Positions 214 through 18,311 of a DNA stretch of 64,000 nucleotides are shown one piece after another. Under the pieces are notes generated by a model that searched no databases, was not told the DNA's origin, and worked only from the letters and a program-made list of their open reading frames with translations. Origin of the DNA: Burkholderiales bacterium RIFOXYD12_FULL_59_19 (GTDB taxonomy: Bacteria; Pseudomonadota; Gammaproteobacteria; Burkholderiales; Burkholderiaceae_C); contig MESQ01000034.1 in assembly GCA_001771065.1 (NCBI GenBank), positions 7,990 to 71,989 on the forward strand, in the 5' to 3' direction. Every line of letters starts with the position of its first letter. The first letter of the stretch is position 1. Position numbers and translations under genes: made by a program.

Positions 214-1946
214 AAATCGTGGTCAGAGAGGCCCCGCCCCGCAGCGTCTGGGCGCTGGAACAAGCCGGCATTCACCCACTGCTGGCGCAACTTTACGCAG
301 CGCGTGGTGTGCAAAACCCGCTGGAACTGGATGACGCACTGGCCCGATTGCTGCCACCTGCCAGCATGCAGGGCACGGCTGAGGCCGCCCAACTGCTGGC
401 CGACGCCATTCGCGACCACCAGAAGCTTTGCATCGTGGCCGATTACGACTGCGACGGCGCCACCGCCTGCGCCGTCGGCATGCGCGGCCTGCGCCAGCTC
501 GGCGCCCTGAACGTGGACTACATCGTGCCCGACCGGGTGCAAGACGGTTATGGCCTGACACCACCCATTTCCGAGCGCGTCAAGGCCAGTGGCGCCGATG
601 TGCTGATCACGGTCGACAACGGCATTGCCAGCTTTGACGGCGTGGCACGGGCTCGCGCGCTGGGCCTGCAGGTGCTGGTCACCGACCACCATTTGCCGGC
701 GCTGCGCGCAGGCCAGATTGAACTGCCCAATGCCAACGTGATCGTCAACCCGAACCAGCCCGGCTGCGCCTTTGCAAGCAAGTCGATCGCCGGCGTCGGT
801 GTGATGTTCTATGTACTGCTTGCGCTGCGCGCCGAGCTGCGCCAGCGCGGCATATTCACCGCGCAAAACCAGCCCAAACTCGACGCCCTGCTGCCGCTGG
901 TGGCGCTTGGTACCGTGGCCGACGTGGTCAAGCTCGACACCAACAACCGCCGTCTGGTGGCGCAAGGACTCAAACGGGTGCGCGCCCAGGCCATGCCTGC
1001 CGGGTTGGTGGCCTTGTTTGTGGCCGCCTCGCGTGAGGCCAGAACAGCCACCACCTTTGACTTTGGTTTTGCGCTGGGGCCGCGCATCAATGCCGCCGGG
1101 CGTTTGTCTGACATGACGCTGGGCATTGAATGCCTGCTCACTGACGACGCGAGTCGTGCCCAGGAACTGGCCAAGGCACTCGATGCCATCAACCGCGAGC
1201 GCCGCGATATTGAGGGCAGCATGCGTGAACAGGCGCTGGCCGTGGCCGAATCGCTGTTTGAAGACACTGCAGAAACCCCACCCGCCATTTGTGTTTTTGA
1301 TGCCGACTTTCACGAGGGCGTGGTCGGTATTGTGGCGGCGCGTATCAAGGACAAGTTTCACCGTCCCACCTTCGTTTTTGCCAGCAGCGGCGCCTCCGGC
1401 CATACCCACGAGCTCAAGGGTTCGGGCCGTTCGATCCCCGGCTTTCACCTGCGCGACGCGCTCGACCTGGTGGCCAAGCGCCACCCGGGCGTACTGCTGC
1501 GCTTTGGCGGCCACGCCATGGCAGCCGGCTGCACCCTCAACGAACACCAGTTGGACACTTTCGAGCGGGGCTTGAACCAGGTTGCCCAGGAGTGGCTCGA
1601 TGCCGCCACGCTGACGCGCCGCCTCGACACCGATGGGGCACTCAAGCCCGAATACCGCCGCCCCGACCTGGTGGACACGCTGCACCATGAAGTCTGGGGC
1701 CAGGGCTTTGCCGCCCCCACGTTCAGCGAAGAGCTGGAAGTGGTGTCGCAGCGCCTGGTAGTTGAAAAACACCTGTCGCTGAAACTCAAACACCGCGGTG
1801 AACCGGTCGATGGCATCTGGTTTGGCCACACCGAGCCGCTACCCAACCGCGTCAAACTGGCGTTCAGGCTGGATGTGGACAGCTGGCGCGGTGAACGCCG
1901 GGTGCGATTTCTGGTGGAAGCAGCAGAATTGCCCGCCCAGCCCTAA
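210..1946 (+). CDS. recJ: Single-stranded-DNA-specific exonuclease RecJ
   Basis: DHH family motifs DYDCDG, TVDNG, TDHH, GTVADVV, GPRINAAGR and FGGHAMAAG. Start placed at ATG 210, coupled to the upstream stop. Confidence 0.96.
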   Translation: MKIVVREAPPRSVWALEQAGIHPLLAQLYAARGVQNPLELDDALARLLPPASMQGTAEAAQLLADAIRDHQKLCIVADYDCDGATACAVGMRGLRQLGALNVDYIVPDRVQDGYGLTPPISERVKASGADVLITVDNGIASFDGVARARALGLQVLVTDHHLPALRAGQIELPNANVIVNPNQPGCAFASKSIAGVGVMFYVLLALRAELRQRGIFTAQNQPKLDALLPLVALGTVADVVKLDTNNRRLVAQGLKRVRAQAMPAGLVALFVAASREARTATTFDFGFALGPRINAAGRLSDMTLGIECLLTDDASRAQELAKALDAINRERRDIEGSMREQALAVAESLFEDTAETPPAICVFDADFHEGVVGIVAARIKDKFHRPTFVFASSGASGHTHELKGSGRSIPGFHLRDALDLVAKRHPGVLLRFGGHAMAAGCTLNEHQLDTFERGLNQVAQEWLDAATLTRRLDTDGALKPEYRRPDLVDTLHHEVWGQGFAAPTFSEELEVVSQRLVVEKHLSLKLKHRGEPVDGIWFGHTEPLPNRVKLAFRLDVDSWRGERRVRFLVEAAELPAQP

Positions 1947-1958
1947 AATCAAACAGGT

Positions 1959-2834
1959 ATGAACACCCTGAACGCTGACCTGCATTGCCATTCCGTTATC
2001 TCCGACGGCACCCTCACCCCTGAAGAACTTGCCCAGCGCGCCAAAGCCCATGGCGTGACCCTGTGGGCCCTTACAGATCACGACGAAATTGGCGGCCAGG
2101 CACGGGCAGCAGCAGCAGCAGCGGCCTGTGGACTGGATTACCTCACCGGCGTTGAAATCTCGGTCACTTTTTTACACCAGACGGTGCACATCATCGGCTT
2201 GGGTTTTGATGTCCATAACGCCGCGCTGACTGTGGGACTGCAGCAAACCCGCGACGGTCGCTCGCAACGGGCCCAGGAAATGGCCGCAGACCTGGCACGG
2301 ATTGGCATTCGTGGTGCCTTTGAGGGCGCGCTGAAGTACGCGGGCAACCCCAACCTGATCTCGCGCACCCATTTCGCCCGCTTTTTGGTGGAAACCGGGG
2401 TGTGCAAAGATACCTACGAGGTGTTTCGCAAATACCTCACCGAAGGCAAACCCGGTTTTGTCGAGCACCGCTGGGCCAACCTGAAAGATGCGGTACGCTG
2501 GATCACCCAGGCGGGCGGCATGGCCGTGATTGCTCACCCCGCGCGCTACAAATTCAGCGCCAATGAAGAACTGGCGCTGTTCACCGAATTCAAGGGCCAC
2601 GGCGGCTTGGGTGTGGAAGTGGTCACCGGCAGCCACTCAAGCGCTGAGAGTACCAGCTACGCTGCGACCGCACTTGAATTTGGCCTGGCGGCCTCCCGCG
2701 GCAGTGACTTTCACAGTCCCTTCGAGAGCCGAACCGAGCTCGGAGCCCTGCCCGACCTGCCGACCCAGCTGACACCGGTATGGCAGTTGCTGGCGGAGCA
2801 CATTCAACGCGCCGCTACCCCGGCGCAGGTCTGA
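1959..2834 (+). CDS. PHP-domain phosphoesterase (YciV/TrpH-like 3',5'-nucleoside bisphosphate phosphatase family)
   Basis: DLHCHS..SDG, ALTDHD, GVEIS, AHP and GSDFH motifs. Usual neighbour of yciO/trpS. Confidence 0.88.
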   Translation: MNTLNADLHCHSVISDGTLTPEELAQRAKAHGVTLWALTDHDEIGGQARAAAAAAACGLDYLTGVEISVTFLHQTVHIIGLGFDVHNAALTVGLQQTRDGRSQRAQEMAADLARIGIRGAFEGALKYAGNPNLISRTHFARFLVETGVCKDTYEVFRKYLTEGKPGFVEHRWANLKDAVRWITQAGGMAVIAHPARYKFSANEELALFTEFKGHGGLGVEVVTGSHSSAESTSYAATALEFGLAASRGSDFHSPFESRTELGALPDLPTQLTPVWQLLAEHIQRAATPAQV

Positions 2835-2839
2835 ACCCC

Positions 2840-3724
2840 ATGTCTTTCTGGAAAAGCCGGCAGGCCGGCGGTATTTTGCTGATCATTCTGGCAACGCTCT
2901 CCTTTGCCACGCTCGACACGGTGACCAAGCACGCCACTCAACTGGTGCCCTTGCTGATGCTGCTGTGGTTCCGTTATGCGTTCCAGACCCTGGTGACCTT
3001 TGCGCTGCGCTTTCCAGTGCAGAAAACCCGCCTCTTTGCCACACCGAATCCACGCTTTCAGACGCTGCGTGGCGTGCTACTGCTCACTACCAGCGCCTGC
3101 GCATTTTTTGGATTGCAGTACCTGCCAGTCGGTGAATTCACGGCCATGGCCATGCTCTCTCCCATGGCCGCCAGCGCCATGGCCGCCTGGACGCTCAAAA
3201 CCCATGTCTCGCCAAGGCGCTGGGCGCTGATGGGCCTGGGGCTGCTGGGTGTCTTGCTGGTGGTGAGCCCGGGGGGCCAGGTATTTGGCTGGGCGGTGTT
3301 ATTCCCGGTGGTACTGGTGACCTCGTACGCCTGGTTTCAGGTGCTCACCAGCCGACTCAGTGGCGACGAAAATCCTTACACCACGCACTTTTACACCGGT
3401 CTGGTGGGTGCCGTGGTCATGACCCCCACCATGCTGTTCAGTTGGGATTCGGCGGCGTTACTGCGCTATTGGTACTGGTTTGTGCTGGTCGGTTTCTTGG
3501 GCACCTTTGGCCACTTGATGCTGATCCGAGCCTACAACCGCGCCAACGCCGTGGTGCTGACGCCCTATCTCTACACCCAAATCGCCTTTGCCACGGTGCT
3601 GGGCTGGCTGGTGTTTCGCCATGTACCTGATGGTCTGGCCTGGGCCGGCATTGCCGTAATTGCTGCCAGCGGCGTGGGCAACGCCCTACTGACCGTCCGC
3701 GAGTCTGCGGGGCTGCGACAATAG
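2840..3724 (+). CDS. DMT/EamA family transporter
   Basis: About 10 hydrophobic segments with two EamA-like halves. Start placed at ATG 2840. Confidence 0.85.
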   Translation: MSFWKSRQAGGILLIILATLSFATLDTVTKHATQLVPLLMLLWFRYAFQTLVTFALRFPVQKTRLFATPNPRFQTLRGVLLLTTSACAFFGLQYLPVGEFTAMAMLSPMAASAMAAWTLKTHVSPRRWALMGLGLLGVLLVVSPGGQVFGWAVLFPVVLVTSYAWFQVLTSRLSGDENPYTTHFYTGLVGAVVMTPTMLFSWDSAALLRYWYWFVLVGFLGTFGHLMLIRAYNRANAVVLTPYLYTQIAFATVLGWLVFRHVPDGLAWAGIAVIAASGVGNALLTVRESAGLRQ

Positions 3725-3728
3725 CGCC

Positions 3729-4352
3729 ATGCCGCAAATTTTCGAAATTCATCCCGACAACCCGCAACCGCGCCTGCTGAAACAGGCCACCGCCCTGCTT
3801 GACAAGGGCGAGGTGCTGGCCGTTCCCACCGACTCCAGCTATGCGCTGGTGTGCCACCTCGACGACAAGGCGGCCGCCGACAAGCTACGCCGCATTCGCG
3901 GTGTCGACGACAAGCACCACCTGACGCTGTTGTGCCGCGACCTGTCTGAGTTGTCCGCCTACGCCAAAGTAGACAACCAGCAATACCGGCTGATCAAGGC
4001 GGCCACCCCGGGCGCCTACACCTTCATCCTGGAAGCCACCAAAGAAGTGCCGCGCCGCCTGAGTCACCCGTCGCGCAAAACCATTGGTCTGCGTGTGCCT
4101 GACCACAAGGTGCTGCAGGAGTTGCTGGCGCTCTACAGCACACCATTGCTGGCCACCACCCTGATTGCACCGGGAGAAACCGAACCGATGAACGATGCCG
4201 ACGAGATTCGCGCCCACTACAAGGGCCGCATAGCAGCCATCATCGACTCGGGCGCCTGTCCACGCGAACCCACCACCGTGGTCGACTTAACCGGTGGCGA
4301 GCCAGTGGTTATCCGTGAAGGCCGCGGCTCGCTGGCGGCCCTGGGCCTTTGA
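3729..4352 (+). CDS. YciO/Sua5 (YrdC-like) family protein
   Basis: IHPDNPQ.R, PTDSSY, TPGAYTFIL, RKTIGLRVP and PTTVVDL motifs. Confidence 0.9.
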   Translation: MPQIFEIHPDNPQPRLLKQATALLDKGEVLAVPTDSSYALVCHLDDKAAADKLRRIRGVDDKHHLTLLCRDLSELSAYAKVDNQQYRLIKAATPGAYTFILEATKEVPRRLSHPSRKTIGLRVPDHKVLQELLALYSTPLLATTLIAPGETEPMNDADEIRAHYKGRIAAIIDSGACPREPTTVVDLTGGEPVVIREGRGSLAALGL

Positions 4353-4379
4353 GCCGACTTGCCCCGAGAACATCACGCC

Positions 4380-5048
4380 ATGGACTTTGCCAACCTGATT
4401 CAAACCGTCGCCCTCTACGCCATTCCGGTGTTGCTGGCCATCACCCTGCACGAAGCCGCACACGGCTTCGCCGCCAAACACTTTGGCGACAACACCGCCT
4501 ATGCCATGGGGCGCGTCACGCTCAACCCGCTGCCGCACATCGACCCGGTGGGTACCATCCTGATGCCGCTGATGCTGTACTTTGCCACCTCGGGGGCTTT
4601 TCTGTTTGGTTACGCCAAACCGGTGCCGGTGCGCTTTGGCAACTTGCGCAACCCCAAGCGCGACATGATTTGGGTGGCGCTGGCCGGACCGGGAGCCAAC
4701 TTTTTTCAGGCGCTGGTCTGGGGCGCGCTACTCTACCTGTTGCGCGGTGCCGACATCAACGAGCCATTTCTGGTTGAAATGGCGCAAGGCGGTGTGCTGG
4801 TGAATGTGGTGATGGCCGTGTTCAACCTGTTTCCACTGCCTCCGCTCGATGGTGGCCGCATTTTGGTGGGGCTGCTGCCGTACCGCCAGGCCATGCTGGT
4901 GTCACGCGTGGAGCCCTGGGGCTTTTTTATCGTGATGGCGCTGGTGCTGGCCGGAGTGGTCAGCAACCTCTGGTTGCGCCCGCTAATGGGCCTGACCTTC
5001 CAGCTCATCAACCTGCTGTTGACCCCGCTGGCCTGGCTGGTAGGCTGA
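4380..5048 (+). CDS. Site-2 protease family (M50) membrane metalloprotease
   Basis: HEAAH zinc motif, AGP and NLFPLPPLDGG motifs. Hydrophobic throughout. Confidence 0.92.
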   Translation: MDFANLIQTVALYAIPVLLAITLHEAAHGFAAKHFGDNTAYAMGRVTLNPLPHIDPVGTILMPLMLYFATSGAFLFGYAKPVPVRFGNLRNPKRDMIWVALAGPGANFFQALVWGALLYLLRGADINEPFLVEMAQGGVLVNVVMAVFNLFPLPPLDGGRILVGLLPYRQAMLVSRVEPWGFFIVMALVLAGVVSNLWLRPLMGLTFQLINLLLTPLAWLVG

Positions 5049-5085: not shown

Positions 5086-6393
5086 ATGAGTATTGCGCGT
5101 TTTCTCACCGGCATCACCACCTCGGGCACGCCCCATCTGGGCAACTACGTGGGCTCGATCCGCCCGTCCGTGGGCCATAGCATGCGCCCTGGCGTCGACA
5201 GTTTTTACTTTCTGGCCGACTACCACGCCCTGATCAAGGTGGACGAGCCGGCGCGCATCCAGCGCTCCACCCTGGAAATTGCCGCCAGTTGGCTGGCCTG
5301 CGGCCTGAATCCAGACCGTGTGGTGTTTTACCGCCAGTCAGACGTCCCTGAAATCCCTGAACTCACCTGGTTCCTGAGCTGCGTTCTGGGCAAGGGCGTG
5401 CTCAACCGCGCCCATGCCTACAAAGCTGCGGTTGATAAAAACGCGGCAGCAGGCAATGACCCCGACGCCGATGTCAATGTGGGCCTGTTCATGTACCCGG
5501 TGCTGATGGGTGCCGACATTTTGATGTTCAACGCGCACCAGGTGCCGGTGGGGCGCGACCAGGTGCAGCACATCGAAATGGCGCGCGACATGGCGCACAG
5601 CTTCAACCACCGCTATGGCGACCATTTTGTGGCACCCGAGGCCGCCATTGAAGACCATGTCGCCACCCTGCCCGGCCTTGACGGCCGCAAGATGAGCAAG
5701 AGCTACGACAACACCATCCCGCTGTTTGCGCCGCGTGAGCAGCTCAAAAAACTCATCGGCAGCATCGTGACCGACTCCAGTGCGCCCGGCGAACCCAAGG
5801 CAGTGGAAGGCTCGACCTTGTTCCAGATTTACCAGGCCTTTGCCAGCTCCGCAGAGACCGAAGCCCTGCGCCAGGCCTATGCCAACGGCATTTCCTGGGC
5901 CGATGCCAAGCACCTTGTTTTTGAGCGCATTGACCAGGAAATTGCGCCCATGCGTGCGGCCTACCAGGCCCTGATCGATAACCCGGCCAAGATTGAAGCC
6001 ATCTTGCAAACCGGGGCGGCCAAAGCCCGCGCCATGGCCACGCCGTTCATGGGCCAACTGCGCCACGCCGTGGGTTTGCGCAGCCTGCAAAGCCAATCCG
6101 ACACCACCATCAAAGTGGCCAAAGTGGCGCTACCGGTATTCAAACAATACCGTGAGCCTGACGGCCAGTTTTATTTCAAGCTGCTAAGCGGCGATGGCCG
6201 CCTGCTGCTGCAAAGCGCTGCTTTTGCGTCGCCCAAAGTGGCGGGGCAAACCATTGCCGCGCTGCAGGCGGATGGCATGACCGCCTTGCACAGCAGCCCG
6301 GTGCCGCTGCAGAGCGGCCCGGACGTCACGGAAACTGACATTGCGGCTGCCTTGCAGGCCTTGAAAACTTCAAAAGAGGCAAAACCAGTCTAG
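5086..6393 (+). CDS. trpS: Tryptophan--tRNA ligase with C-terminal extension
   Basis: HLGN (HIGH-type) and KMSKS motifs, plus VPVGRDQ.QH.E and MYPVLM..DIL. Confidence 0.96.
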
Positions 6394-7607: not shown

Positions 7608-8354
7608 ATGGCACACGCCGTTCAAACCATGGCCTATGTCGGCCAGGCCTGTTCAAAATTCAAAGGAAACATCATGCTCAAAGGACTGGCTTTAACGCCC
7701 CCGGCCATTGGCCGAATTGCCATCGGTAAAGTGGTCGAAAAAAATGGCAAACGCTTGCCTGAAAAAGACGACTCGTTCACGATCACATCACAGGTTCAAA
7801 ACAAGGACGGATGGGTCAATCACCCAATAAATGAGACCCTGCGCAAAGATCCGAATGCAAAATTACGTGCCATTGCGGTCAGGCTTCTGTTTGATGACCC
7901 CGATTTGAATTTGAGAGCCAATTACAGTCTGTTCGATCGCCAAACCGGCCGGCCGATGTGTGTTGGTAATGGCGACACCTGCCGACGCTCTCTGGCTGCC
8001 GGAGTGCAAACCCTACCCTACCCTTCACCCGAAGCCTGCGAGCTTGCCAAGGGGGGATTCTGCAAGCCCTATGGGCGTCTGAATGTGCGGATTGGCCAGG
8101 ATGATGAACTCGGTTCCTTCGTGTTCCGGACAACCGGGTTCAACAGCATCCGAACGCTCGCTGTCAGACTGAGCTACTTGTCTGCGGTGTCAGGGGGGCA
8201 TCTTTCCACCTTGCCGCTGGAGCTGCGCCTACGGGGAAAGTCCACCACCCAGTCACACCGGGCACCGATCTATTACGTCGATTTGACGGTAGCCAGGTGG
8301 ATTGGTCATCATCTTGCAGCCATTGACCAACATGAACTTCAAAAGGAACTGACC
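7608..8354 (+). pseudogene. Chimeric remnant: DUF932-like N-terminus (MAHAVQTMAYVG) joined to a 3'-truncated Gp3-like/'hydrolase or metal-binding' MGE protein (ATG 7674)
   Basis: Internal RBS AAAGGA before ATG 7674. Recognisable motifs MLKGLALTPP..GRI.IGKVVEKNGKRLPEKDD.F, CKPYGRL.V and FRTTGFNSIRTL. Similarity ends after YYVDLTV. Confidence 0.6.
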
Positions 8355-8885
8355 ATGAAAAAATCAGCCAAAACGGAAATTGTGATTGCTGCCTGGGCAG
8401 GCCGTACCGGGCCAGCCTACTGGGGTGACCGGGAGTATTCAGGCTATGACAACCAGTCATCAGCATTCTGGGTGTCTTTTCGAGGAGCACAGCCGGGTGA
8501 ACGCCACCTCTATCTGAATGACGATTGCCGTGCTGTGGGCGACATTGGCCTGTACGTGTATGTCACCGTGGACGGGACGGTCAGCATTGACTTGCGGCTG
8601 CATGATGCGGGTTCAATGACTTTGCTTGAGAGCGTTCAGCGCATCAAGGTCTTGAAGCGGATGTTTGCCAAAGGCAAGGCCTATCCGTTTGGCAATTACG
8701 AGCGCGAAACGAACGTGCACAACGAGCTGACCAAGGCTGTGGATGCGCTGGGTATCAAACGGGCCATGGTTTATCACGGTGTCAATGAACCCGAGACCTT
8801 CGAGCTGGTGGGCATTGTCCTCAAGCGGATTTCAGACTGTGTTGATGAACGGTTGAATCGAATGAAACTGCGCCAAGCTGCTTGA
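8355..8885 (+). CDS. Hypothetical 176-aa protein, in-frame with the upstream remnant but with its own RBS
   Basis: AAGGA-ACTGACC-ATG at 8355. Followed by a strong hairpin. Confidence 0.6.
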   Translation: MKKSAKTEIVIAAWAGRTGPAYWGDREYSGYDNQSSAFWVSFRGAQPGERHLYLNDDCRAVGDIGLYVYVTVDGTVSIDLRLHDAGSMTLLESVQRIKVLKRMFAKGKAYPFGNYERETNVHNELTKAVDALGIKRAMVYHGVNEPETFELVGIVLKRISDCVDERLNRMKLRQAA

Positions 8886-9524: not shown

Positions 9525-10832
9525 ATGAAAGCCGACGACAAATTCCTTAGGTTGAGACTGAAAAATCTTTCAAGCAAAGACTCAAACTATTGGGAATTCC
9601 GTCGTCAGGCCGCACGCAACGGCGTCCATGGAATGCTGCAGTACCCGGCGATGATGGTCCCTCAGATGCAGCGGGACGTGCTTCGACTCCTTCTTGAAGC
9701 GCGGCCAGAAACCTCTCGAATACTAGATCCATTCGTTGGTTCAGGAACAGTCATGACCGAAAGTATGGTGGCAGGGCAACCATTTACGGGGGTAGACATT
9801 AACCCACTTGCGATCCTTACTTGCCGAGCGAAGTCGCATATTCGTCGCTATAGGTTACTCAAGAAGAAGGTTGCCACTCTGACCGCTTTAATCCTTTTCG
9901 ACGAACATCAGAACATAGAAATAGAGTTCTTTGGTCGAGACAAATGGTTTACGCGTCAGGCCTTGATTTCACTTTCTCGAATCCGCCAGTCTATTCAAAA
10001 GGAACCGGACCAATGGGCCAGAGAAATTTTCTGGACAACATTGGCTGAAACAGTACGGCAAACTAGCAATTCTCGAACATCAACATATAAGCTGCATTTG
10101 CGCCCTGCACACGAGATTGAGCAGCTTCCAGACCCCGTGGACGTATTCTTGACCAGGTTGGCTGCGGTATACGAGCAATTTGAATATCACGGAAGTAGTT
10201 TATCTAGGAATCCGAGCAATTTGAGAGTTAAACCGGCTTTGCATTGCGATTCGATCATGAATCTTGCTTCCTATGGCCGATCAAAATTTGCCCTTGTCGT
10301 TACTTCTCCACCTTATGGTGATAATCATTCGACTGTGCCATATGGGCAATTCTCGTACTTAGCCTTGAGTTGGATTGATGCCGGTGATCTACCTGGTATC
10401 GAAACAAAGAAGTTGAATACGCGAAGTGTCGATACAGGAAGTTTGGGCGGCAGCGCAGTTTATTCACGCGACGCGTGCCTTGAATTGGAAGATTCGTCGC
10501 CATCTTTCAAGACGTTCATTACTGAGTTACGACTCCAAGGTCGTAAGGATCTTGAGAGCAAAGTCATTTCGTTTTCGAATGATTTTTTTCAATCAATAAA
10601 AGTCATAGTTAATGCAATGGACACAGGAGGCTATGCCGCGTGGACCCTCGGCAACCGAACCGTTGGTGGACTTGTCGTTCCACTCACAGATATTTGTCGA
10701 GAGTTACATCATGTTTGCGGTGCAAGGCATGTGGATACTGTACGTCGGAAGATTCCTTCCAAGCGCACCCCATCTCGCAATTCAATTAGCGAAACTATGA
10801 GCAGTGAATGCCTACTCTTAGTTGGCACTTAG
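9525..10832 (+). CDS. Alpha-class amino-DNA methyltransferase, M.MvaI-like (probable N4-cytosine)
   Basis: YPAMMVPQ, motif I DPFVGSGT, DINP, motif IV VVTSPPYGD..TVPYGQFS, C-terminal NRTV and RKIPSKR.PS.NS. The order is motif I before motif IV. Confidence 0.88.
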   Translation: MKADDKFLRLRLKNLSSKDSNYWEFRRQAARNGVHGMLQYPAMMVPQMQRDVLRLLLEARPETSRILDPFVGSGTVMTESMVAGQPFTGVDINPLAILTCRAKSHIRRYRLLKKKVATLTALILFDEHQNIEIEFFGRDKWFTRQALISLSRIRQSIQKEPDQWAREIFWTTLAETVRQTSNSRTSTYKLHLRPAHEIEQLPDPVDVFLTRLAAVYEQFEYHGSSLSRNPSNLRVKPALHCDSIMNLASYGRSKFALVVTSPPYGDNHSTVPYGQFSYLALSWIDAGDLPGIETKKLNTRSVDTGSLGGSAVYSRDACLELEDSSPSFKTFITELRLQGRKDLESKVISFSNDFFQSIKVIVNAMDTGGYAAWTLGNRTVGGLVVPLTDICRELHHVCGARHVDTVRRKIPSKRTPSRNSISETMSSECLLLVGT

Positions 10833-12005
10833 CGGTTGTTTCCTGAAAATCAGTAAAGACTCATCATTAATATGAGGGCGCTGGCTACGGCGAATCGCTA
10901 CGTCTCGAACTATCTGCATTGATAGAGGCAACCCAATATCATTTAGTGCTTCGATAAGTTGCGGGATAGTTTCACGCCGCTTGCTGGATTGCCCAAGAAT
11001 CATGCAGCAGTAGCCGCCAGGTTGAAGAACTCGTTCCACTTGAACAAAGACAGCTTTGATGTCTGAGATGTATTCTTCAAACGCTTTCAAACGCGTGCGC
11101 TTACTTCTTGCGCCTGTCTCCATCGTTCGGTAGATTTGAATGTCTAAACCGAACCATTCCATCGTTAGGCGCTGCGCTTTTACGTAGTCAACGACACCAA
11201 AATACGGAGGTGAACAAACGACCAAAGCAAATTCGTTATTTTGATGTTGACTTAATGCGACAGCTGAGTCATTACATTCGAACTTAATACTAGGAAGTGA
11301 TTGCGGACCTTTGTTCAACCGCCTATCACGCTCTACATAGGCCACACATAACGCACGAACTGCTTCTTCGAAAAGAGAAAATGCATTGGCATATGACTTG
11401 TCGAGAGGACGCGTATTGTCGCAAATATATCCCCAATGACGGGTTTCACTACAAGCTGACATCAAGATTGAACTGAAGCAGAACTCCATCATGATTCGGC
11501 TTACTCCAGAACAACTTTGGATATATGTCCAAAGCACTGATAGCTCGAATAACGTTGCCGGGTGGTACCACTTCGACCCCTGAACTGTGGGAGGGACCAC
11601 AAGTTTAAGGGATTCGTTATTCAAACTAGTGGCGAGCCGCTCGTCTAGTATGCGTCGCAGGTGTTCAGTCATGATCACTTGAATACGGGAGGCTTTTACT
11701 GCAAATGTCTTTGCTCTACCAATGAGCGTTGAAATTGGATTGATATCAATCCCTAAAGCGAGCCGACCAAGGCGTTGAGCTTCCAATATTGTTGTCCCTG
11801 AACCGCAGTATGGGTCGAGCACAGAGTCGCCAGGACTTGATAGAGTGCCGATCAAGGCTGCGGGAATTTGGGAAATGAGACGCCCAGGATAAAAGTGGAG
11901 TGCAGAAAACTGTGACGCGGACTGGTCTCCCTCATAGTCCCAGTCCATATCCCGCAATCGTTCCAGGGGATCAGAATAATGATTTGGCTGAAGCATTTTT
12001 TCCAT
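10818..12005 (-). CDS. Second alpha-class amino-DNA methyltransferase (SPPY)
   Basis: HFYPGRL, DPYCGSGT, GIDINP, VVCSPPYFGVVDY and RVLQPGG motifs. Start placed at ATG 12005 (alternative 11996), overlapping the HD gene 3' end. Confidence 0.85.
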   Translation of the reverse strand: MEKMLQPNHYSDPLERLRDMDWDYEGDQSASQFSALHFYPGRLISQIPAALIGTLSSPGDSVLDPYCGSGTTILEAQRLGRLALGIDINPISTLIGRAKTFAVKASRIQVIMTEHLRRILDERLATSLNNESLKLVVPPTVQGSKWYHPATLFELSVLWTYIQSCSGVSRIMMEFCFSSILMSACSETRHWGYICDNTRPLDKSYANAFSLFEEAVRALCVAYVERDRRLNKGPQSLPSIKFECNDSAVALSQHQNNEFALVVCSPPYFGVVDYVKAQRLTMEWFGLDIQIYRTMETGARSKRTRLKAFEEYISDIKAVFVQVERVLQPGGYCCMILGQSSKRRETIPQLIEALNDIGLPLSMQIVRDVAIRRSQRPHINDESLLIFRKQPLSAN

Positions 12006-13233
12006 TAATGTAGACTCTCGACAAACTCTCAACGTTGGTCGAGAACAATTTTGCGATGGATTCAATTAGGCCAGGCAATTCTTTCGAGATTCCCTTCGGT
12101 TGTGAACCAGAATAGAAAATGTAGACGATCAAGCTTTTTGATAGACGTCCAAATTCGAAATTCTCACCAGAGTCGTAGAGAAGGTTTAGCTTCTTACTAA
12201 AGCTTCCTCGTTCCTTGAACACATATACATGCCACTTAGCCACCGCAAGCACTTTTAGGAGTTCCTCCACCGCGTCCTGAATGGCCAATCGTGGGAGCGA
12301 GAACAGGGGGGTGTCTTGCCAATCAAACTTCAGTGTCAACAGTGGCTTCGGAAGCACGCCAAGGTAGTCATCACTGATCATCTTTCGCGTCTCTTTACTC
12401 TTCATTAGTCGCTCAAGCAATAGCTCATCAGTGAGTGTCCAATCTTCGGTTGTGACCAGCCCAGTCCTCATGGCTGCACGCAGGGCTTCTGTCAATATCG
12501 CTTGGCTAGCAACTGTGGCATGATCAAAAATTAGTACCTCATATACTTTTTCCCTCAAGGTGGCCCACGTCTCCAATAGCGGCATGCTTTGCTGAGCAAC
12601 TGTCAAATTGCCATCCTTATTAACAGCAAGCGCTTTTGCCAATTCGCTTGCTTCTGCACGCTGCATAGGGAAACCCAAGGACCACGCCATCCGCCACACA
12701 TTGTCTATGTTATCGAAATCAATACTTCCAAATATCAAGTGATGTAGGGAATGCCGTTTGCGTAAAATTTCCAATACAAGATCAATATCGATGTCTAAAC
12801 GAGAAGCCATCTTCATGACGCGTGGAGTTTTTCCCGCAAAGATTTGATGACCAGCATCCTCTTGTACGTGTTGTTGTAGAAGGGTATCCACCGCCGCAGT
12901 TTCGTGGTCCCATCCAAGTTCTTCTTTAAGAAGATACTCGAACAGATGACCGAAAGGCGGCGTGGCGACGTCATGAAGAATGATCGCAACTTCTAGCGCA
13001 TCCAGTTCTTTATTTGTGTGTGATGACCCGGCAGTTTTTCGCCACTGAGAAAACAGATGAAGCACACCAAGTGTGTGTGCATATCGACGTAGTTCCCCAA
13101 GGGTGGAGAGCGTTGGAGTCATCGAGTTAAGAAGTCGAATTTGCGACAGACGCCGAACTTCGGGTGCTGTCGCCAAAACTGAAGACAGTGGCGAGAGTTG
13201 AAATTCGCCGTATAACGGGTCAAAGATATTCAT
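11971..13233 (-). CDS. HD-superfamily phosphohydrolase, SAMHD1/dNTP triphosphohydrolase-like
   Basis: N-terminal IFDPLYG, RRL.QIR, RYAHTLGV, LHDVATPPFGH and D.DNID metal-binding residues. Confidence 0.85.
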   Translation of the reverse strand: MNIFDPLYGEFQLSPLSSVLATAPEVRRLSQIRLLNSMTPTLSTLGELRRYAHTLGVLHLFSQWRKTAGSSHTNKELDALEVAIILHDVATPPFGHLFEYLLKEELGWDHETAAVDTLLQQHVQEDAGHQIFAGKTPRVMKMASRLDIDIDLVLEILRKRHSLHHLIFGSIDFDNIDNVWRMAWSLGFPMQRAEASELAKALAVNKDGNLTVAQQSMPLLETWATLREKVYEVLIFDHATVASQAILTEALRAAMRTGLVTTEDWTLTDELLLERLMKSKETRKMISDDYLGVLPKPLLTLKFDWQDTPLFSLPRLAIQDAVEELLKVLAVAKWHVYVFKERGSFSKKLNLLYDSGENFEFGRLSKSLIVYIFYSGSQPKGISKELPGLIESIAKLFSTNVESLSRVYINGKNASAKSLF

Positions 13234-14525
13234 TTCCTTTTTCCGACCAATATCTTCAAGAGATCTTGAGGCTTAATTATTACGCCTGCTACCACTCCGA
13301 TAGCAGCTAAGAGCCACTTTGGGATAAGCGAACAGAACAGAATTATGGGAACTAGAAAGACAAGAAAGTTTTGCTCCGTCAGAAATTTCATCAAGTATTC
13401 TGCTGACGTAGCGATCACAATGGGGCCGTATAACGGAAGGGCGAATACCAACGCGGTCATTCGGGTGTAATCGATTTCCTTATTGGACCACCACCACAGC
13501 CTCGCAGGCCACAACGTATATTCCTTCCAGTCCTTTGGCATGGTCCAGGACTCGAGCGCGAATACAACAAGCCCTTGTTCCAAAGTGCTTGGCCGTTCGC
13601 CCTCCATGAAAAGGTGATTAGTGGATTTCGTAAGTGACGATTCGATTGTTTCCATTACCCTCGTGGCGTATAGATACTGTCGGCTCGGAAGGCCCTTTCC
13701 AAATAGCAGGTATGCCCCTAGTATGCCGATCGGTAGAATAAAATAGTCTCGTGCGTGATTGCCATTTTTTTTCTTGTAATCAAAAAAGTGCGTGTACCGA
13801 GACTTGACATTCACATTGTCTAGCGATACCTCAATGAGGTCTGACTTCACCTTTTTATTCGCCTTACCTTCCAGACTCAACATGATGGCAATCAATACGA
13901 TCAACTTGTAAGGTCTGCTCTTCTTTCTCTCATCAAGATATGATTTTTGTAGCTTCAAGCCAGCATCCACACGCACATTGTCGAAAACTGCGAATTCTGC
14001 AGAGTTTCCAGTACTCGTCCGCCTTATGATCGCGAGCAATATCAGAATAATTGCAGTTGAGAACTCCGATGGATGTTTTGGATTTTCAGGGAAATCAGCA
14101 TCGGTCCACAACCCATCCACGCCGAGTCGACGGTTTTTTAAAAGCTCCCAAACTTCTTGAACCACTATGTCGGTAAAGTCATGGCGGAAAGCAAGACCCG
14201 CCAGAAGGAAAGTTAGTCGCACGTTTTGGCGCAAATTGTCTTCACAATCGTCAAACGTGGTGCTTGTGCGCTCCTGCCAATATTGAGCTAACTCCGTGCG
14301 GGCATCTATGGCAGCTTGATCTTGTGATCGAAAATCTGCGCTATATGCTATGCAAGCGGCGACGCCGCCGTACAAACCAACTTGTGCTTGTTTTTGTGCT
14401 AAACCATCCAGGAACTGCCCCCAATGCAAGGGGTGCCCGGTCTTGTCTGCATGATGGTCAGTAAATTGCTTTCTAATGCCCGTCAAGAACGCGCTAACAG
14501 TCTTGTTCTGAAAGAGTTCAGCCAC
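13230..14525 (-). CDS. Hypothetical alpha-helical protein with C-terminal transmembrane helices
   Basis: 431 aa. GTG start abuts the upstream stop (TAAGTG) and its stop overlaps the HD ATG (ATGA). Two to three hydrophobic segments in the last about 75 aa. Confidence 0.8.
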   Translation of the reverse strand: MAELFQNKTVSAFLTGIRKQFTDHHADKTGHPLHWGQFLDGLAQKQAQVGLYGGVAACIAYSADFRSQDQAAIDARTELAQYWQERTSTTFDDCEDNLRQNVRLTFLLAGLAFRHDFTDIVVQEVWELLKNRRLGVDGLWTDADFPENPKHPSEFSTAIILILLAIIRRTSTGNSAEFAVFDNVRVDAGLKLQKSYLDERKKSRPYKLIVLIAIMLSLEGKANKKVKSDLIEVSLDNVNVKSRYTHFFDYKKKNGNHARDYFILPIGILGAYLLFGKGLPSRQYLYATRVMETIESSLTKSTNHLFMEGERPSTLEQGLVVFALESWTMPKDWKEYTLWPARLWWWSNKEIDYTRMTALVFALPLYGPIVIATSAEYLMKFLTEQNFLVFLVPIILFCSLIPKWLLAAIGVVAGVIIKPQDLLKILVGKRK

Positions 14526-15176
14526 TTATTCTTCTCCACGGAGTAAAACTTTTATTTGGTGGGCATTTTTTTCTGCCATATCGAAGCCAGGATGTGTGCG
14601 CCAACTGGCAAGTTCTTCGTTTCCCTGTTGTTCAGCGACCAACACACGTGCAAATTGTCTTGGAAGGCCTTCGGCAACTGGATAGACCTTAAACGATGAT
14701 GTACTCTCTGAAATCAGTAAATACTGGGGAAGAGCAACACCAAATTTGAGTGCTGCAGCGAGCGTACTAAACGTTGTACCTCCGTCTGAAAAACATTCAT
14801 CCGCGCTATCTAAAATGCTCGGCGCACCCGGGAACAGCAAGACATGCGGGTGAAAGCAGTGAACATTCTTTGTGTCGGCGAGTGTGCAAAGTGGTGAATG
14901 CCCATGCTCGGTCAATAGACAGCTTCCGAACTGGTTTGTAAGAATCTGACGGATTTTTCCCGTGTAGTCCGAAAACTGCTGGATTGTTGTTGCGTCCCGA
15001 ATTTTATCGAGATGTTCAATCGTAGCTACGATGGCATAACCTGGGGACAGTGGACCTATACCTGCAATCGTAAAGAACTTTGGTGCTACATCGACAAGCA
15101 ATCTGACTGCTGGTCTGCAAAGAAAACAATCGGTGCGTTCAAGTTCATACGTCGCAAAAGAGCTGAGATGTTCCAT
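14526..15176 (-). CDS. HIT-like / CwfJ-C-like nucleotide hydrolase
   Basis: CFLC zinc knuckle, GPLSPGY..V...EH, EHG..C and HCFHPH histidine motif. ATG 15176 lies 7 nt after the MazG stop. Confidence 0.7.
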   Translation of the reverse strand: MEHLSSFATYELERTDCFLCRPAVRLLVDVAPKFFTIAGIGPLSPGYAIVATIEHLDKIRDATTIQQFSDYTGKIRQILTNQFGSCLLTEHGHSPLCTLADTKNVHCFHPHVLLFPGAPSILDSADECFSDGGTTFSTLAAALKFGVALPQYLLISESTSSFKVYPVAEGLPRQFARVLVAEQQGNEELASWRTHPGFDMAEKNAHQIKVLLRGEE

Positions 15177-15183
15177 GCTTGTT

Positions 15184-15477
15184 TTATTTGTTAAGAATGC
15201 AACCATCATCAAACGCCCCTCGCGCCTTTCGTTTTGAATCTGCGGCGCAAGCGATATCCTCCACCGAATATCCTAACTGCCTGCCAATAGCGCAAAGGAC
15301 CTCAAAGACATCCGCACACTCATCTAACGACGGTGATTCGTTAAGCTCATCCGTTTCTTCGTGCAATTTTCGCAATAACCATGGGAGTAGCTCCGCATTG
15401 TGAACATGTCGCACGTCTGCGACTACGCCGCTTTCTCGCATGATGGTCGGAATCCGGTCGCGGACAAGTTTTTCCAT
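15184..15477 (-). CDS. MazG-like all-alpha nucleoside triphosphate pyrophosphohydrolase
   Basis: KLVRDRIP, KL.EE..E, E.AD..EV and KR..RG.F motifs. AAGGGGG RBS before ATG 15477. Confidence 0.88.
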   Translation of the reverse strand: MEKLVRDRIPTIMRESGVVADVRHVHNAELLPWLLRKLHEETDELNESPSLDECADVFEVLCAIGRQLGYSVEDIACAADSKRKARGAFDDGCILNK

Positions 15478-15691
15478 ACATCCCCCTTTGACCACATTAT
15501 CTGATTGCAGAGAACGCGACTCAATCGGATAGCTGAAGTTTTCTAACTTTCACCCAGAGGTAGCAACACTCGGGCGAATACCAACGTAGGGTTGGGGTAG
15601 GCCATTGAGGTCGGTACAGCCGCTAAGGGTCAGTGGCCGACCGTGATCAAGCTACCATCGGGCACCAAGCATCAAGGCTTCCATTGTCGCA

Positions 15692-15963
15692 TTAGCAGAC
15701 CAAGTGGAATAGTGATGATTGATCTACCCACATACTGACGAGGCAAACCCGAGTCAATTTTTCTAACTTTAGATTCCCGCATCCATCAGTCAGACAGGCT
15801 TGGGCGATTTCCGGTGCTAGCCGAATCAATCGTGCTGTCCTGCTTGCCTGGCCGAGGTCGATGCCTTCCGCTGTGGAAATCTCTGTCAGCGACCGATATT
15901 TACCCTCGTCCAGCAGATGCTGCCAGTAGTGCGCCAGACCCAATGCGCGGATCAACGGGCTGG
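15692..15963 (-). pseudogene. 3' fragment of the HTH-like hypothetical that normally follows recombinases in serine-recombinase islands
   Basis: SPLIRALGLAHYWQHLLDEGKYRSLTEI..AEGIDLGQASR..RL..LAPEI. There is no start of its own, and it is fused to the recombinase fragment. Confidence 0.6.
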
Positions 15964-16280
15964 GTGACAGACACGAATGACACGCCCTGGCGCTCGAACA
16001 CTTCGACCATTTTTGAGAAGTCGGCCAAGCTGCGGGTGAGGCGGTCAATTTTGTAGACCACCACAATGTCGACCAAACCGCGCTCAATGTCAGCCATGAG
16101 GCGCTTGAGTCCGGGCCGCTCAGTGTTGCCGCCAGAAAACCCTGGGTCGTCATAGTCGTCCACCACCGGAATCCAGCCCTCGGAGCGTTGGCTGGCAACG
16201 TAGGATTGCCCTGCCTCTTTCTGCGCATCAATGGAGTTGAATTCCTGCTCCAGCCGCTCGTCAGAAGAAACGCGGCAATA
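15961..16280 (-). pseudogene. Large serine recombinase, catalytic-domain fragment truncated at both ends
   Basis: YCRVSS..RLEQEFNSIDAQ, DPGFSGGNTERPGL, VVYKIDRLTRS and FVSVTQ motifs, after which the family sequence breaks off. No native start before the Tyr codon. Confidence 0.85.
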
Positions 16281-16283
16281 GCC

Positions 16284-16403
16284 TGGCCTGATTTGTCGCG
16301 GCGCCAACAGGCGACGATCAAGCGCTTCGATCAGGGGCTTAAAGCAATGACTGAGGGCAAGGACCCCGACAATATGCACTTCACCGACGAAGAGGATGGA
16401 TAA
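16284..16403 (+). pseudogene. Probable C-terminal fragment of an unidentified gene
   Basis: ..RRQQATIKRFDQGLKAMTEGKDPDNMHFTDEEDG* looks protein-like and begins at the recombinase breakpoint. The family was not recognised. Confidence 0.3.
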
Positions 16404-16708
16404 GGTGTGCGACTGGGCGTGTTGAAACGAGGGCGAACTACTATTCATCCGCCTATGTCAGTCATCATTCGATGTTCACCATTGCAAACGGTCATTTGTC
16501 AACCGGTGCATCGGCAATATGCTTTCAAGAGCATTTCAATGTCGACTTTCAGGCGCTAAAACCGGTTGTCGCTACGTCAGCTTAGGGTCATAACTTGCCC
16601 GTGGCAGCCAGAATTTGACTGACTCCAACGGGTCTTCTGGAGCCATCGCCGCACGCCGTTTGGCTCCAGTGGTCTGGGACCAAAATTGCGATTTTTAATA
16701 CTTTGCAA

Positions 16709-16884: not shown

Positions 16885-17082
16885 ATGCGCACCACCATTG
16901 CTCTTGACGACGATTTACTTGCAAAAGCAGAGTCATTGACAGGTTTATCTGAAAAAACGACGTTGATCCGCGAGGCCCTGCGAGCGCTGATTCAGCGAGA
17001 GAGTGCAAAAAGGCTCGCACTTCTGGGCGGCTCTGAGCCGCAGCTTAAAGACATTCCAAGACGGCAACCGGAGCCGGCATGA
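16885..17082 (+). CDS. vapB: Type II antitoxin, VapB family
   Basis: MRTTIALDDDLL..A ribbon-helix-helix-like start and EALRALI..ES..RLA.LGG. Overlaps vapC (ATGA). Confidence 0.88.
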   Translation: MRTTIALDDDLLAKAESLTGLSEKTTLIREALRALIQRESAKRLALLGGSEPQLKDIPRRQPEPA

Positions 17083-17450
17083 TTCTGGTGGACACATCGG
17101 TATGGATTGATCACCTGCGTGCAAATGACGAGCGCTTGTCTCAATTGCTCATGGATGGCCAAGTGCTCGTTCATCCGTTTGTCACGGGAGAATTGGCCTT
17201 GGGTAATCTGAAAAATCGCGACGAAGTGCTCATGATGATGCAGGATTTGCCACAAGCTACTGTGGCCACCGTGGCTGAAGTGCTCGGATTGATCGAAGTG
17301 CAAAACCTGTTTGGTCTGGGCATCGGCTACATCGATGCACATCTACTGGCATCGGTACTTCTGGTGCCTGGATCACGGCTTTGGACCCGTGACAAGCGTC
17401 TGCTTTCAGCCGCAATGCAGCTGGGCATCTCCGTTAACATGACGCACTAA
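17079..17450 (+). CDS. vapC: Type II toxin, VapC PIN-domain ribonuclease
   Basis: ILVDTSVWIDHLR, GEL, ID.HLLAS and LWTRDKRL motifs. Confidence 0.9.
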   Translation: MILVDTSVWIDHLRANDERLSQLLMDGQVLVHPFVTGELALGNLKNRDEVLMMMQDLPQATVATVAEVLGLIEVQNLFGLGIGYIDAHLLASVLLVPGSRLWTRDKRLLSAAMQLGISVNMTH

Positions 17451-17477
17451 CTTTAAAGAGTGTCTTTCATTTTTGTC

Positions 17478-18311
17478 ATGCCCCAATCACCCAGCTCCCA
17501 ATACGAAAATTTGTTGCGCCATGTGGACACCCATGGTGTCTTCAAGGCCGACCGCACCGGCACCGGCACCAAGAGTGTGTTCGGTCACCAGATGCGCTTT
17601 GACCTGACCCAGGGCTTTCCGCTGGTCACCACCAAGAAGGTGTTCCTGAAGGCAATCATCGTCGAACTGCTCTGGTTTCTGCGCGGCGACGCCAACGTCA
17701 AATGGCTGCAGGACAACGGTTGCACGATTTGGGACGAGTGGGCCAACCCCGCCACCGGTGACCTGGGGCCGGTCTATGGCGTGCAATGGCGCAGTTGGCC
17801 GACACCGGGCGGCGGCCACATCGATCAGATCAGCCAGGTCATTCAGACCCTCAAAAACAACCCGGACTCGCGCCGCATGCTGGTGAGCGCCTGGAACGTG
17901 GCCGAGCTCGACCAAATGGCGCTCATGCCCTGCCATGCGTTTTTCCAGTTTTACGTGGCCCCGGCAACGGTGCCGGGCGGCAAGGGCAAACTGAGCTGCC
18001 AGTTGTACCAGCGCAGTGCCGACATCTTTCTGGGCGTGCCCTTCAACATTGCCAGTTATGCGCTGCTGACCCACATGGTGGCGCAGCAATGTGACCTTGA
18101 GGTGGGCGACTTCATCTGGACTGGCGGTGACTGCCACATCTACAGCAACCACGCCGAGCAGGTGGCACTACAGCTGAGCCGCACGCCATTTGCCTACCCC
18201 ACGCTGGAAATCAAGCGCCGACCCGACTCGATCTTTGACTATGTCTTTGAAGATTTCGCTGTCAACGGCTACCAGTGTCACCCCGCCATCAAGGCGCCGG
18301 TGGCCGTGTGA
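17478..18311 (+). CDS. thyA: Thymidylate synthase
   Basis: [42 protein letters not shown] motifs. Confidence 0.97.

Follow-up and report, generated by a model that had tools for sequence, protein, structure and literature searches.

A predicted alpha/alpha-toroid protein with a C-terminal membrane hairpin, encoded in a mobile nucleotide- and methyltransferase-centred cassette of a Burkholderiales bacterium

The toroid-TM gene and its predicted product

The gene studied here lies in a window of 64,000 nucleotides (nt) from Burkholderiales bacterium RIFOXYD12_FULL_59_19 (GenBank assembly GCA_001771065.1, contig MESQ01000034.1, positions 7,990 to 71,989 of the forward strand); all coordinates without the name of a locus are positions in this window. 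It occupies 13230..14525 on the minus strand within a cassette of genes for nucleotide enzymes and DNA methyltransferases and encodes a protein of 431 amino acids (aa), which we call the toroid-TM protein after its two parts, an alpha/alpha toroid and a predicted transmembrane (TM) segment. The protein represents an unannotated family that joins a known fold to a membrane hairpin in an undescribed, mobile and nucleotide-centred cassette. The interval holds a single long open reading frame (ORF) on the minus strand, opposite a stop-rich plus strand, and is tightly joined to its neighbors on both sides: the TAA of the upstream HIT-like gene directly abuts the GTG start (TAAGTG), and the TGA stop shares an ATGA overlap with the ATG of the downstream HD gene. 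The GTG start is credible because 14 close homologues align from residue 1, a GGAG lies 9 to 12 nt 5' of it, and the upstream stop abuts it. With these 14 close homologues and 222 clusters of relatives described below, the ORF is a real gene, beyond chance.

A first-pass annotation, made from the letters of the sequence alone, had pointed to recurring short motifs, C-terminal hydrophobic helices and a basic GKRK tail in this protein, and had seen no familiar catalytic motif. All of these elements are present as quoted (HWGQFL at residues 34-39, GLYGGVAA at 50-57, DGLWT at 137-141, SEFSTAIIL at 153-161, PSTLEQG at 312-318, and GKRK at 428-431 behind the hydrophobic helices), and the protein has no match in Pfam, NCBIfam or PADLOC by either single-sequence or profile search. 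The quoted motifs are the best-conserved positions of the family: in an alignment of 111 sequences, G36, F38, G50 and G53 are invariant, while W35, Q37, Q48, Y52, W140 and Q317 each show an identity of 94% or more. They correspond to the canonical toroid repeat (G-W/F-G ... Q.G.YG.., R.L..G.W).

Structure prediction, proposed as a check in the same annotation, gave a confident model: AlphaFold2 reached a mean predicted local distance difference test score (pLDDT) of 77.6 with the 14 homologues, and of 94.3 with a predicted template modeling score (pTM) of 0.91 when given 111 sequences from an exhaustive profile search. The model has about 13 helices in residues 10-348, in agreement with the inner and outer ring of about 12 helices that defines the alpha/alpha-toroid fold, and one beta-hairpin insert at residues 243-265 (13731..13799, minus strand) that carries the family-wide motif F.DY ... 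RDY.I.P. Foldseek comparison of both models with the Protein Data Bank (PDB) returned about 30 top matches that are all (alpha/alpha)6 toroids, with probabilities of up to 1.00 for the toroid matches. The best match is a mannanase of glycoside hydrolase (GH) family 76 (E 2.8e-3, target-normalised TM-score 0.56); others include squalene-hopene cyclase 8pak (E 0.025, TM-score 0.50), drimenyl-diphosphate synthase, thioester domains of alpha2-macroglobulin, C3 and TEP, GH105/GH88 enzymes and transcobalamin. Since Foldseek returns almost solely (alpha/alpha)6 toroids for both models, the fold class is secure, and the modest scores together with high root-mean-square deviations indicate that no solved structure is closely related. 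When the model was compared with viral structures (BFVD), Foldseek returned no match of note.

Profile comparisons point in the same direction as the model. Four of 67 distant relatives match Pfam SQHop_cyclase_C (best E 1.9e-6), and a search of PDB sequences with the family profile A2 ranks squalene-hopene cyclase and lanosterol synthase first (E 0.013), through a weak similarity between family positions 100-184 and cyclase residues 501-582; the A1 profile found no match among PDB sequences. Applied to a sample of 400 genomes from the class, the A5 profile detected five ORFs of 646 to 767 aa in five genomes (E ~1e-6), and the two of them that were tested are both true squalene-hopene-type cyclases. 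The earlier guess of an alpha/alpha toroid resembling prenyltransferases and terpene cyclases is thus upheld by the predicted structure and its Foldseek matches, by the SQHop_cyclase_C relatives and by a profile that detects true cyclases. From sequence comparison, conservation and the model, we assign residues 1-348 (13482..14525, minus strand) to a predicted (alpha/alpha)6 toroid that makes up one domain and whose sequence is a distant relative of the C-terminal toroid found in squalene-hopene cyclases.

The conserved polar residues of the family (Q37, D40, Q48, Q100, R103, R132, D249, Y250, R259, D260, Y261, S313, T314 and Q317) fall into loops or the N-termini of helices 51-62, 101-112, 266-275 and 314-328, or into the beta-hairpin, and W140 lies in the loop ahead of helix 154-170. 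Judging from sequence and secondary structure, the polar residues appear to be laid out as in the pockets of toroid enzymes. Four familiar identities were rejected, as no DxDD, DDxxD, Cys/His zinc ligand, Cys-His set or CGEQ cysteine is conserved among the 111 sequences. A class II terpene cyclase would have two toroids (beta-gamma) and a DxDD motif, compared with the single toroid of about 350 aa found here. A protein prenyltransferase beta subunit or LanC-like protein was discarded for its missing zinc ligands, with no Cys or His at least 60% conserved in A5, and a true thioester domain (CGEQ) for want of a conserved Cys, T314-L-E-Q317 having Thr in its place. As to the six-hairpin glycosidases, to which the top fold match belongs and which have a pair of catalytic carboxylates in the central pocket, D40, D249 and D260 are conserved and may or may not correspond to that pair.

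These findings bear on one alternative, that the protein is an enzyme of a non-immune DNA-modification or nucleotide-salvage pathway that would act on a lipid-linked, isoprenoid or nucleotide substrate, together with the methyltransferases and the HIT-like, HD and MazG/NUDIX or AIRS-domain enzymes. Many alpha/alpha toroids are catalytic, the best fold matches are GH76, GH105 and terpene cyclases, charged residues such as D40, D249, D260, R103, R132 and R259 are conserved, and all partners of the protein are nucleotide enzymes. Besides the missing catalytic signatures, however, conservation is highest at the structural G/W/Q/Y positions of the repeat, the family is sporadic, mobile and island-borne, and a relative fused to a TIR domain (see below) is hard to square with a metabolic role. 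We therefore regard a role as such a non-immune enzyme as very unlikely.

C-terminal to the toroid, a hydrophobic helical hairpin of two to three helices (residues 355-417; 13275..13463, minus strand) is evident from hydropathy, from the model and from 107 of 111 family members that possess a C-terminal hydrophobic segment, and is predicted to be the membrane anchor or effector part of the protein. With hydrophobic segments defined by the Kyte-Doolittle scale (19-residue window, threshold 1.6), residues 356-375 and 381-427 lie above the threshold, and the AlphaFold2 model has four helices in residues 355-426, including 355-385, 389-399 and 403-416. The hairpin is followed by the basic tail KPQDLLKILVGKRK (residues 418-431; 13233..13274, minus strand), and a net charge of at least +2 over the last 15 residues is found in 95 of the 111 members (mean +2.8 vs about 0 in the toroid). 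A signal peptide is absent. By the positive-inside rule, the toroid would be cytoplasmic and followed by a two-span (kinked) hairpin and a tail that likewise stays in the cytoplasm. Across the wide family the transmembrane sequences are poorly conserved and hydrophobicity alone is kept.

The surrounding cassette and its island

Immediately upstream of the toroid-TM gene, 14526..15212 (minus strand) encodes a HIT-superfamily (CwfJ/GalT-like) protein with the invariant motifs DCFLC..P, EHG..P.C and HC.H.H.L.FP (alignment A3), whose true start is probably within 15176-15209. Its profile matches the C-terminal HIT-like region of CWF19L1 (E 0.0028), and an orthologue on a metagenomic contig (L022, see below) matches Pfam DcpS_C, CwfJ_C_1 and HIT; the copy in the window has no Pfam match. 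Downstream follows a SAMHD1-like HD phosphohydrolase of 420 aa (11971..13233, minus strand; Pfam HD 1.3e-6) with an intact H..HD..D set, whose ATG overlaps the toroid-TM stop and whose profile finds 2q14 (4e-16), EF1143 (2e-8) and SAMHD1 (1.7e-7) among PDB structures.

The next gene encodes a DNA methyltransferase of the SPPY N6/N4 type (10818..12005, minus strand; Pfam N6_N4_Mtase 1.8e-17, PADLOC MTase_II 3.8e-32); its ORF reaches 12065, and the likely start, an ATG at 12005, falls inside the 3' end of the HD gene. A second N6/N4 DNA methyltransferase gene (9525..10832, plus strand; PADLOC MTase_II 2.2e-83) is convergent with the first, so that the 3' ends of the two genes share 15 nt (10818-10832). 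It is kept in five related loci (L002, L008, L009, L010 and L011), and since its position or orientation differs in L005 and L010, we consider it an accessory part of the cassette. The methyltransferases are the only matches that PADLOC returned in the cassette, and Pfam identifies just these two and the HD protein.

At the other end, the first cassette gene (15184..15495, minus strand, likely ATG at 15477) encodes an all-alpha protein of about 97 aa with invariant EE..EL ... ECADV.EV motifs, which we tentatively identify as a MazG/PRA-PH-like nucleoside triphosphate (NTP) pyrophosphohydrolase. Its Pfam and NCBIfam matches are all sub-threshold (a single weak hisI match in NCBIfam), and its profile found no supporting match among PDB sequences, only designed coiled coils. 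A sigma-70 promoter-like site just ahead of this gene (15524-15496) does not stand out above chance.

The cassette forms part of an island between trpS (5086-6393) and thyA (17460-18311) and lies in a block of 46% G+C content, compared to 61% for the genome. Among the other genes of this island, 7608-8885 (plus strand), in a part of intermediate G+C content, encodes a 425-aa protein with a Gp3-like recombination directionality factor domain (PF18897, 1e-42). At 15692-16448 (minus strand) a serine recombinase gene is split, with a resolvase N-terminal ORF at 15900-16448 (Pfam 5.6e-28) that overlaps an ORF in another frame at 15692-16321; the arrangement probably reflects a pseudogene with a frameshift, located where the island ends. 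Just ahead of thyA, a small gene pair on the plus strand (16885-17450) encodes a 123-aa product beginning with MILVDTSVWIDH, which to the eye looks like a PIN/VapC toxin, and a 65-aa upstream partner.

Family distribution, conserved neighborhood and module exchange

In 1.84 billion protein representatives, the toroid-TM family comprises 222 clusters at 50% identity (E <= 0.001). Among 400 other genomes of the phylum and 400 genomes of the class, we found one other carrier, the same genome in both samples. An A1 profile scan of genome contigs detected two loci of metagenome-assembled genomes (MAGs) alone, and a word search with the A2 profile added only one further distant member. A tblastn search of plasmid and phage collections found no match, and a search of the accessible literature turned up no description of the family or of its cassette.

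A six-gene form of the cassette is found in seven metagenomic or MAG loci (L002, L005, L006, L008, L009, L010 and L011), in which the toroid-TM protein is 33% to 56% identical to the copy in the window, and in three loci the cassette is cargo of a Tn7-like element. The order HIT-like gene, toroid-TM gene, HD gene and methyltransferase gene is kept even where the toroid-TM proteins share 17% to 25% identity, and with the SPPY methyltransferase it holds, at 17% to 20% identity of the toroid-TM protein, in the four other loci whose downstream DNA was examined. The outer parts of the cassette vary more: L014, L017 and L019 encode an AIRS-domain (PurM/ThiL-like) protein instead of the MazG-like protein and the second methyltransferase, and homology of the flanking genes in this form was confirmed by hhalign (9e-36, 2.9e-66 and 1.7e-47).

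Defence-type genes adjoin several copies of the cassette, including genes for a type IV methyl-directed restriction endonuclease (REase)-like protein (L001), an HNH protein (L008) and a protein with a partial type II REase match (L006). At L006, positions 9672-15031 beside the cassette in the Tn7-like element also encode a 584-aa protein without any match, an 844-aa HATPase_c_3 protein that is weakly matched by REase_II of PADLOC, and an N6/N4 methyltransferase, together a putative second system. A solitary distant member of the family (P0148, 451 aa, about 20% identity) is encoded at 8001-9356 of L015/L016 with neither a HIT-like nor an HD partner; its gene is divergent beside a dndA/C/D/E-like phosphorothioation cluster and a helicase gene, with UDG, TumE and Mrr genes nearby.

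One relative, P0142, has an N-terminal TIR domain of the CAP12/Pycsar type fused to the toroid; all toroid motifs are kept, and there is no hydrophobic segment. Its TIR domain matches Pfam PF10137 (1.7e-29) as well as the PADLOC models for the TIR effector of the cyclic-oligonucleotide-based antiphage signaling system (CBASS; 4.5e-47) and for PycTIR (3.8e-34). The protein is encoded on a 4.9-kb contig (L022, JGI 3300081571), where positions 1070-4943 hold a third form of the cassette, with genes in the order NUDIX protein, AIRS-domain (PurM/ThiL-like) protein, P0142 and HIT-like protein. The last of these is matched by profile A3 with a probability of 92%, and the contig is too short to show whether HD or methyltransferase genes follow. 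Interchange of a TM segment and a TIR domain on one sensor domain is a hallmark of the ligand-gated effectors of CBASS and of the pyrimidine cyclase system for antiphage resistance (Pycsar). The TIR domain in place of the membrane hairpin in P0142, together with the retention of the anchor throughout the family, thus lends comparative support to an effector role of the toroid-TM protein.

A second exchange concerns the front of the cassette. On plasmid pA of Rhizobium etli CIAT 652 (CP001075.1, positions 118320-123603), orthologues of the HD protein and the SPPY methyltransferase (27% and 28% identity, respectively; E 1e-43 for the methyltransferase) are preceded by a 516-aa PNP_UDP_1 protein of the nucleoside phosphorylase superfamily and a 295-aa protein, which replace the HIT-like and toroid-TM proteins. 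All four genes are annotated as hypothetical, and the 295-aa protein has no Pfam match; we compared it and the 516-aa protein with the toroid family and ruled out that either is a relative. Possibly this locus is a sister system whose front module differs, and the swap suggests that the cassette is built of two modules, of which the one containing the toroid is exchangeable.

In one 668-aa metagenomic protein (P0107), the toroid and one membrane segment are in frame with about 250 N-terminal residues of the HD protein, which is either a real fusion, implying physical association, or an artefact of a frameshift or of the assembly. P0107 touches on an alternative in which the toroid-TM protein is a membrane anchor or scaffold: the toroid, as a platform for protein contacts, would tether the HIT-like and HD proteins, and perhaps the methyltransferase, at the inner membrane, the site of phage DNA entry; it would not be toxic itself, and the HD protein would be the effector through depletion of deoxynucleoside triphosphates (dNTPs) or as a nuclease. 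The coupling of start and stop codons with both neighbors, the gene order fixed across deep divergence, the toroid and TM segment in frame with HD in P0107, the TM sequences that vary in all but hydrophobicity and the intact SAMHD1-like catalytic set of the HD protein would all suit such a scaffold. Yet one would hardly expect a TIR effector domain to take the place of a pure anchor, P0107 may owe its fusion to a frameshift artefact, and the Arg/Asp/Gln-rich set of conserved toroid residues resembles a ligand site more than a flat interface, which leaves a scaffold role rather unlikely in our view.

A candidate sensor-effector and its relation to known systems

We tentatively favor, at somewhat less than an even chance, the reading that the toroid-TM protein is the sensor-effector subunit of a nucleotide-centred, methylation-associated defence cassette. 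By analogy with the sensor-plus-TM effectors Cap15 and PycTM, the pocket of the toroid would bind either a partner protein or a small ligand with a phosphate group that the partner enzymes produce or leave intact. This would in turn make the membrane hairpins assemble and the membrane lose its integrity, resulting in growth arrest or abortive infection. A membrane-disrupting abortive-infection effector is also what the first-pass annotation had proposed for this gene. That proposal remains plausible in the light of the TIR swap in one relative and the retention of the anchor, and it is weakened by its dependence on single cases and analogy and by the lack of a cyclase-type signal generator.

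Several observations weigh against a sensor-effector role. Neither Pfam nor PADLOC recognises a cGAS/DncV-like nucleotidyltransferase (CD-NTase) or cyclase in the cassette, so that it has no recognised signal generator. The exchange for TIR is known from one protein on one 4.9-kb metagenome contig, and a word-based search for siblings of the P0142 TIR-toroid combination returned the fusion itself only, and the PNP_UDP swap is a single locus. The poor conservation of the TM sequences is as compatible with a simple anchor as with a pore, and the coupled, dNTPase-like HD enzyme could itself be the effector. The company of defence genes is modest and at most suggestive, and the cassette is rare in sampled genomes (absent from 399 others of the phylum).

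A more specific version of the sensor-effector reading is a distinctly long shot: the toroid might be the first receptor of the alpha/alpha-toroid type for an alarm molecule that derives from nucleotides and is not cyclic, gating either a hairpin pore or, in the fused variant, a TIR NADase. The HD and MazG-like or NUDIX enzymes would keep the alarm low in uninfected cells, and the whole would amount to a new class of abortive-infection signaling without a cyclase. Such an alarm might be a methylated mononucleotide that is set free from the cassette's own methylome on degradation of host DNA by a phage; alternatively, the HIT-like protein might supply it as a dinucleoside polyphosphate or a nucleotidylated product.

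If the toroid-TM protein does act as a sensor-effector, bacteria would have taken up a fold of terpene cyclases, glycosidases and complement thioester domains as that half of a membrane or TIR effector which senses the ligand. It would then represent a new type of sensor in prokaryotic immunity within a cassette that has no known signal synthase, and provide a manageable set of four to six genes for studying how methyltransferases and three different nucleotide hydrolase or transferase folds work together with a membrane protein. Even if it were an anchor only, a family of about 220 clusters with a confident structural model that is unnamed in the sources searched merits definition and annotation.

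Among known systems, the membrane effectors of CBASS and Pycsar (Cap15, PycTM and TM-STING types) resemble the toroid-TM protein in combining a soluble sensor domain with a membrane segment of one or two helices, and the protein described here likewise sits on a mobile island. Their TIR counterparts (Cap12 and PycTIR) are mirrored by the one toroid relative in which TIR replaces the hairpin, and the fusion of a sensor to a membrane segment that is interchangeable with an effector domain thus recurs in the toroid-TM family, the interchange being seen in one case. In contrast, the sensors of CBASS and Pycsar are SAVED, STING, cyclic nucleoside monophosphate (cNMP)-binding or beta-barrel domains rather than an alpha/alpha toroid, the membrane segment of the toroid-TM protein is C-terminal, no PADLOC model matches the protein, and no CD-NTase or cyclase gene adjoins it.

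Squalene-hopene and oxidosqualene cyclases and the beta subunits of prenyltransferases share the (alpha/alpha)6 toroid and its repeat motifs with the toroid-TM protein, as well as a profile similarity that extends to the C-terminal domain of the cyclases. They differ from its single toroid that has neither DxDD nor zinc ligands, from its C-terminal hairpin (vs a monotopic patch) and from its genomic context of nucleotide enzymes and DNA methyltransferases without isoprenoid genes. The coupled downstream HD partner with its intact metal site is reminiscent of dNTP-depleting enzymes of the dGTPase/SAMHD1 type. Known defence genes for dGTPases act alone, however, whereas the HD gene of the cassette is locked to those for the methyltransferase, the HIT-like protein and the toroid-TM protein, and the PADLOC dGTPase models do not match it. 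In a preprint of January 2026 (10.64898/2026.01.15.699771), N6-methyl-deoxyadenosine monophosphate (m6-dAMP) is presented as a methylome-derived trigger of dNTP depletion; this may serve as a conceptual frame for methyltransferases beside nucleotide enzymes and is no evidence for the cassette.

Alpha-Alpha toroid-ParA-Effector (APE) systems, proposed in October 2026, contain a thioester-domain-like toroid with Ser/Thr for Cys, a ParA partner and a charged C-terminal helix (bioRxiv 10.64898/2026.10.19.760177). They lead to a further alternative, that the toroid of the toroid-TM protein is a sensor only, which would detect an invader component at the membrane and activate the neighboring enzymes, while the hairpin merely positions it. 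In APE systems the toroid is the proposed sensor and HD phosphoesterases are among the variable effectors (same preprint), our fold matches repeatedly include thioester domains of alpha2-macroglobulin, C3 and TEP, and T314-L-E-Q317 superficially echoes CGEQ with Thr for Cys. Yet S/T-x-x-E/Q is equally a common motif for capping the N-terminus of a helix, the cassette has neither a ParA gene nor a C-terminal helix that is long and charged, and the TIR fusion puts an effector domain on the toroid protein itself, making a role in sensing alone decidedly unlikely. For the sensor-effector that we favor, the comparison with APE, made by description only, is close in some respects and not in others. 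The toroid-TM protein differs from the APE toroid in the lack of ParA in the cassette or its flanks, in its hydrophobic hairpin and in its fixed HIT-like, HD and methyltransferase partners. Both, in turn, are uncharacterised single-domain toroids that resemble thioester domains and lie in predicted immune neighborhoods with HD partners, and T314 of the toroid-TM protein may likewise stand at the place of the Cys. The APE toroid protein is the nearest published analogue of the toroid-TM protein.

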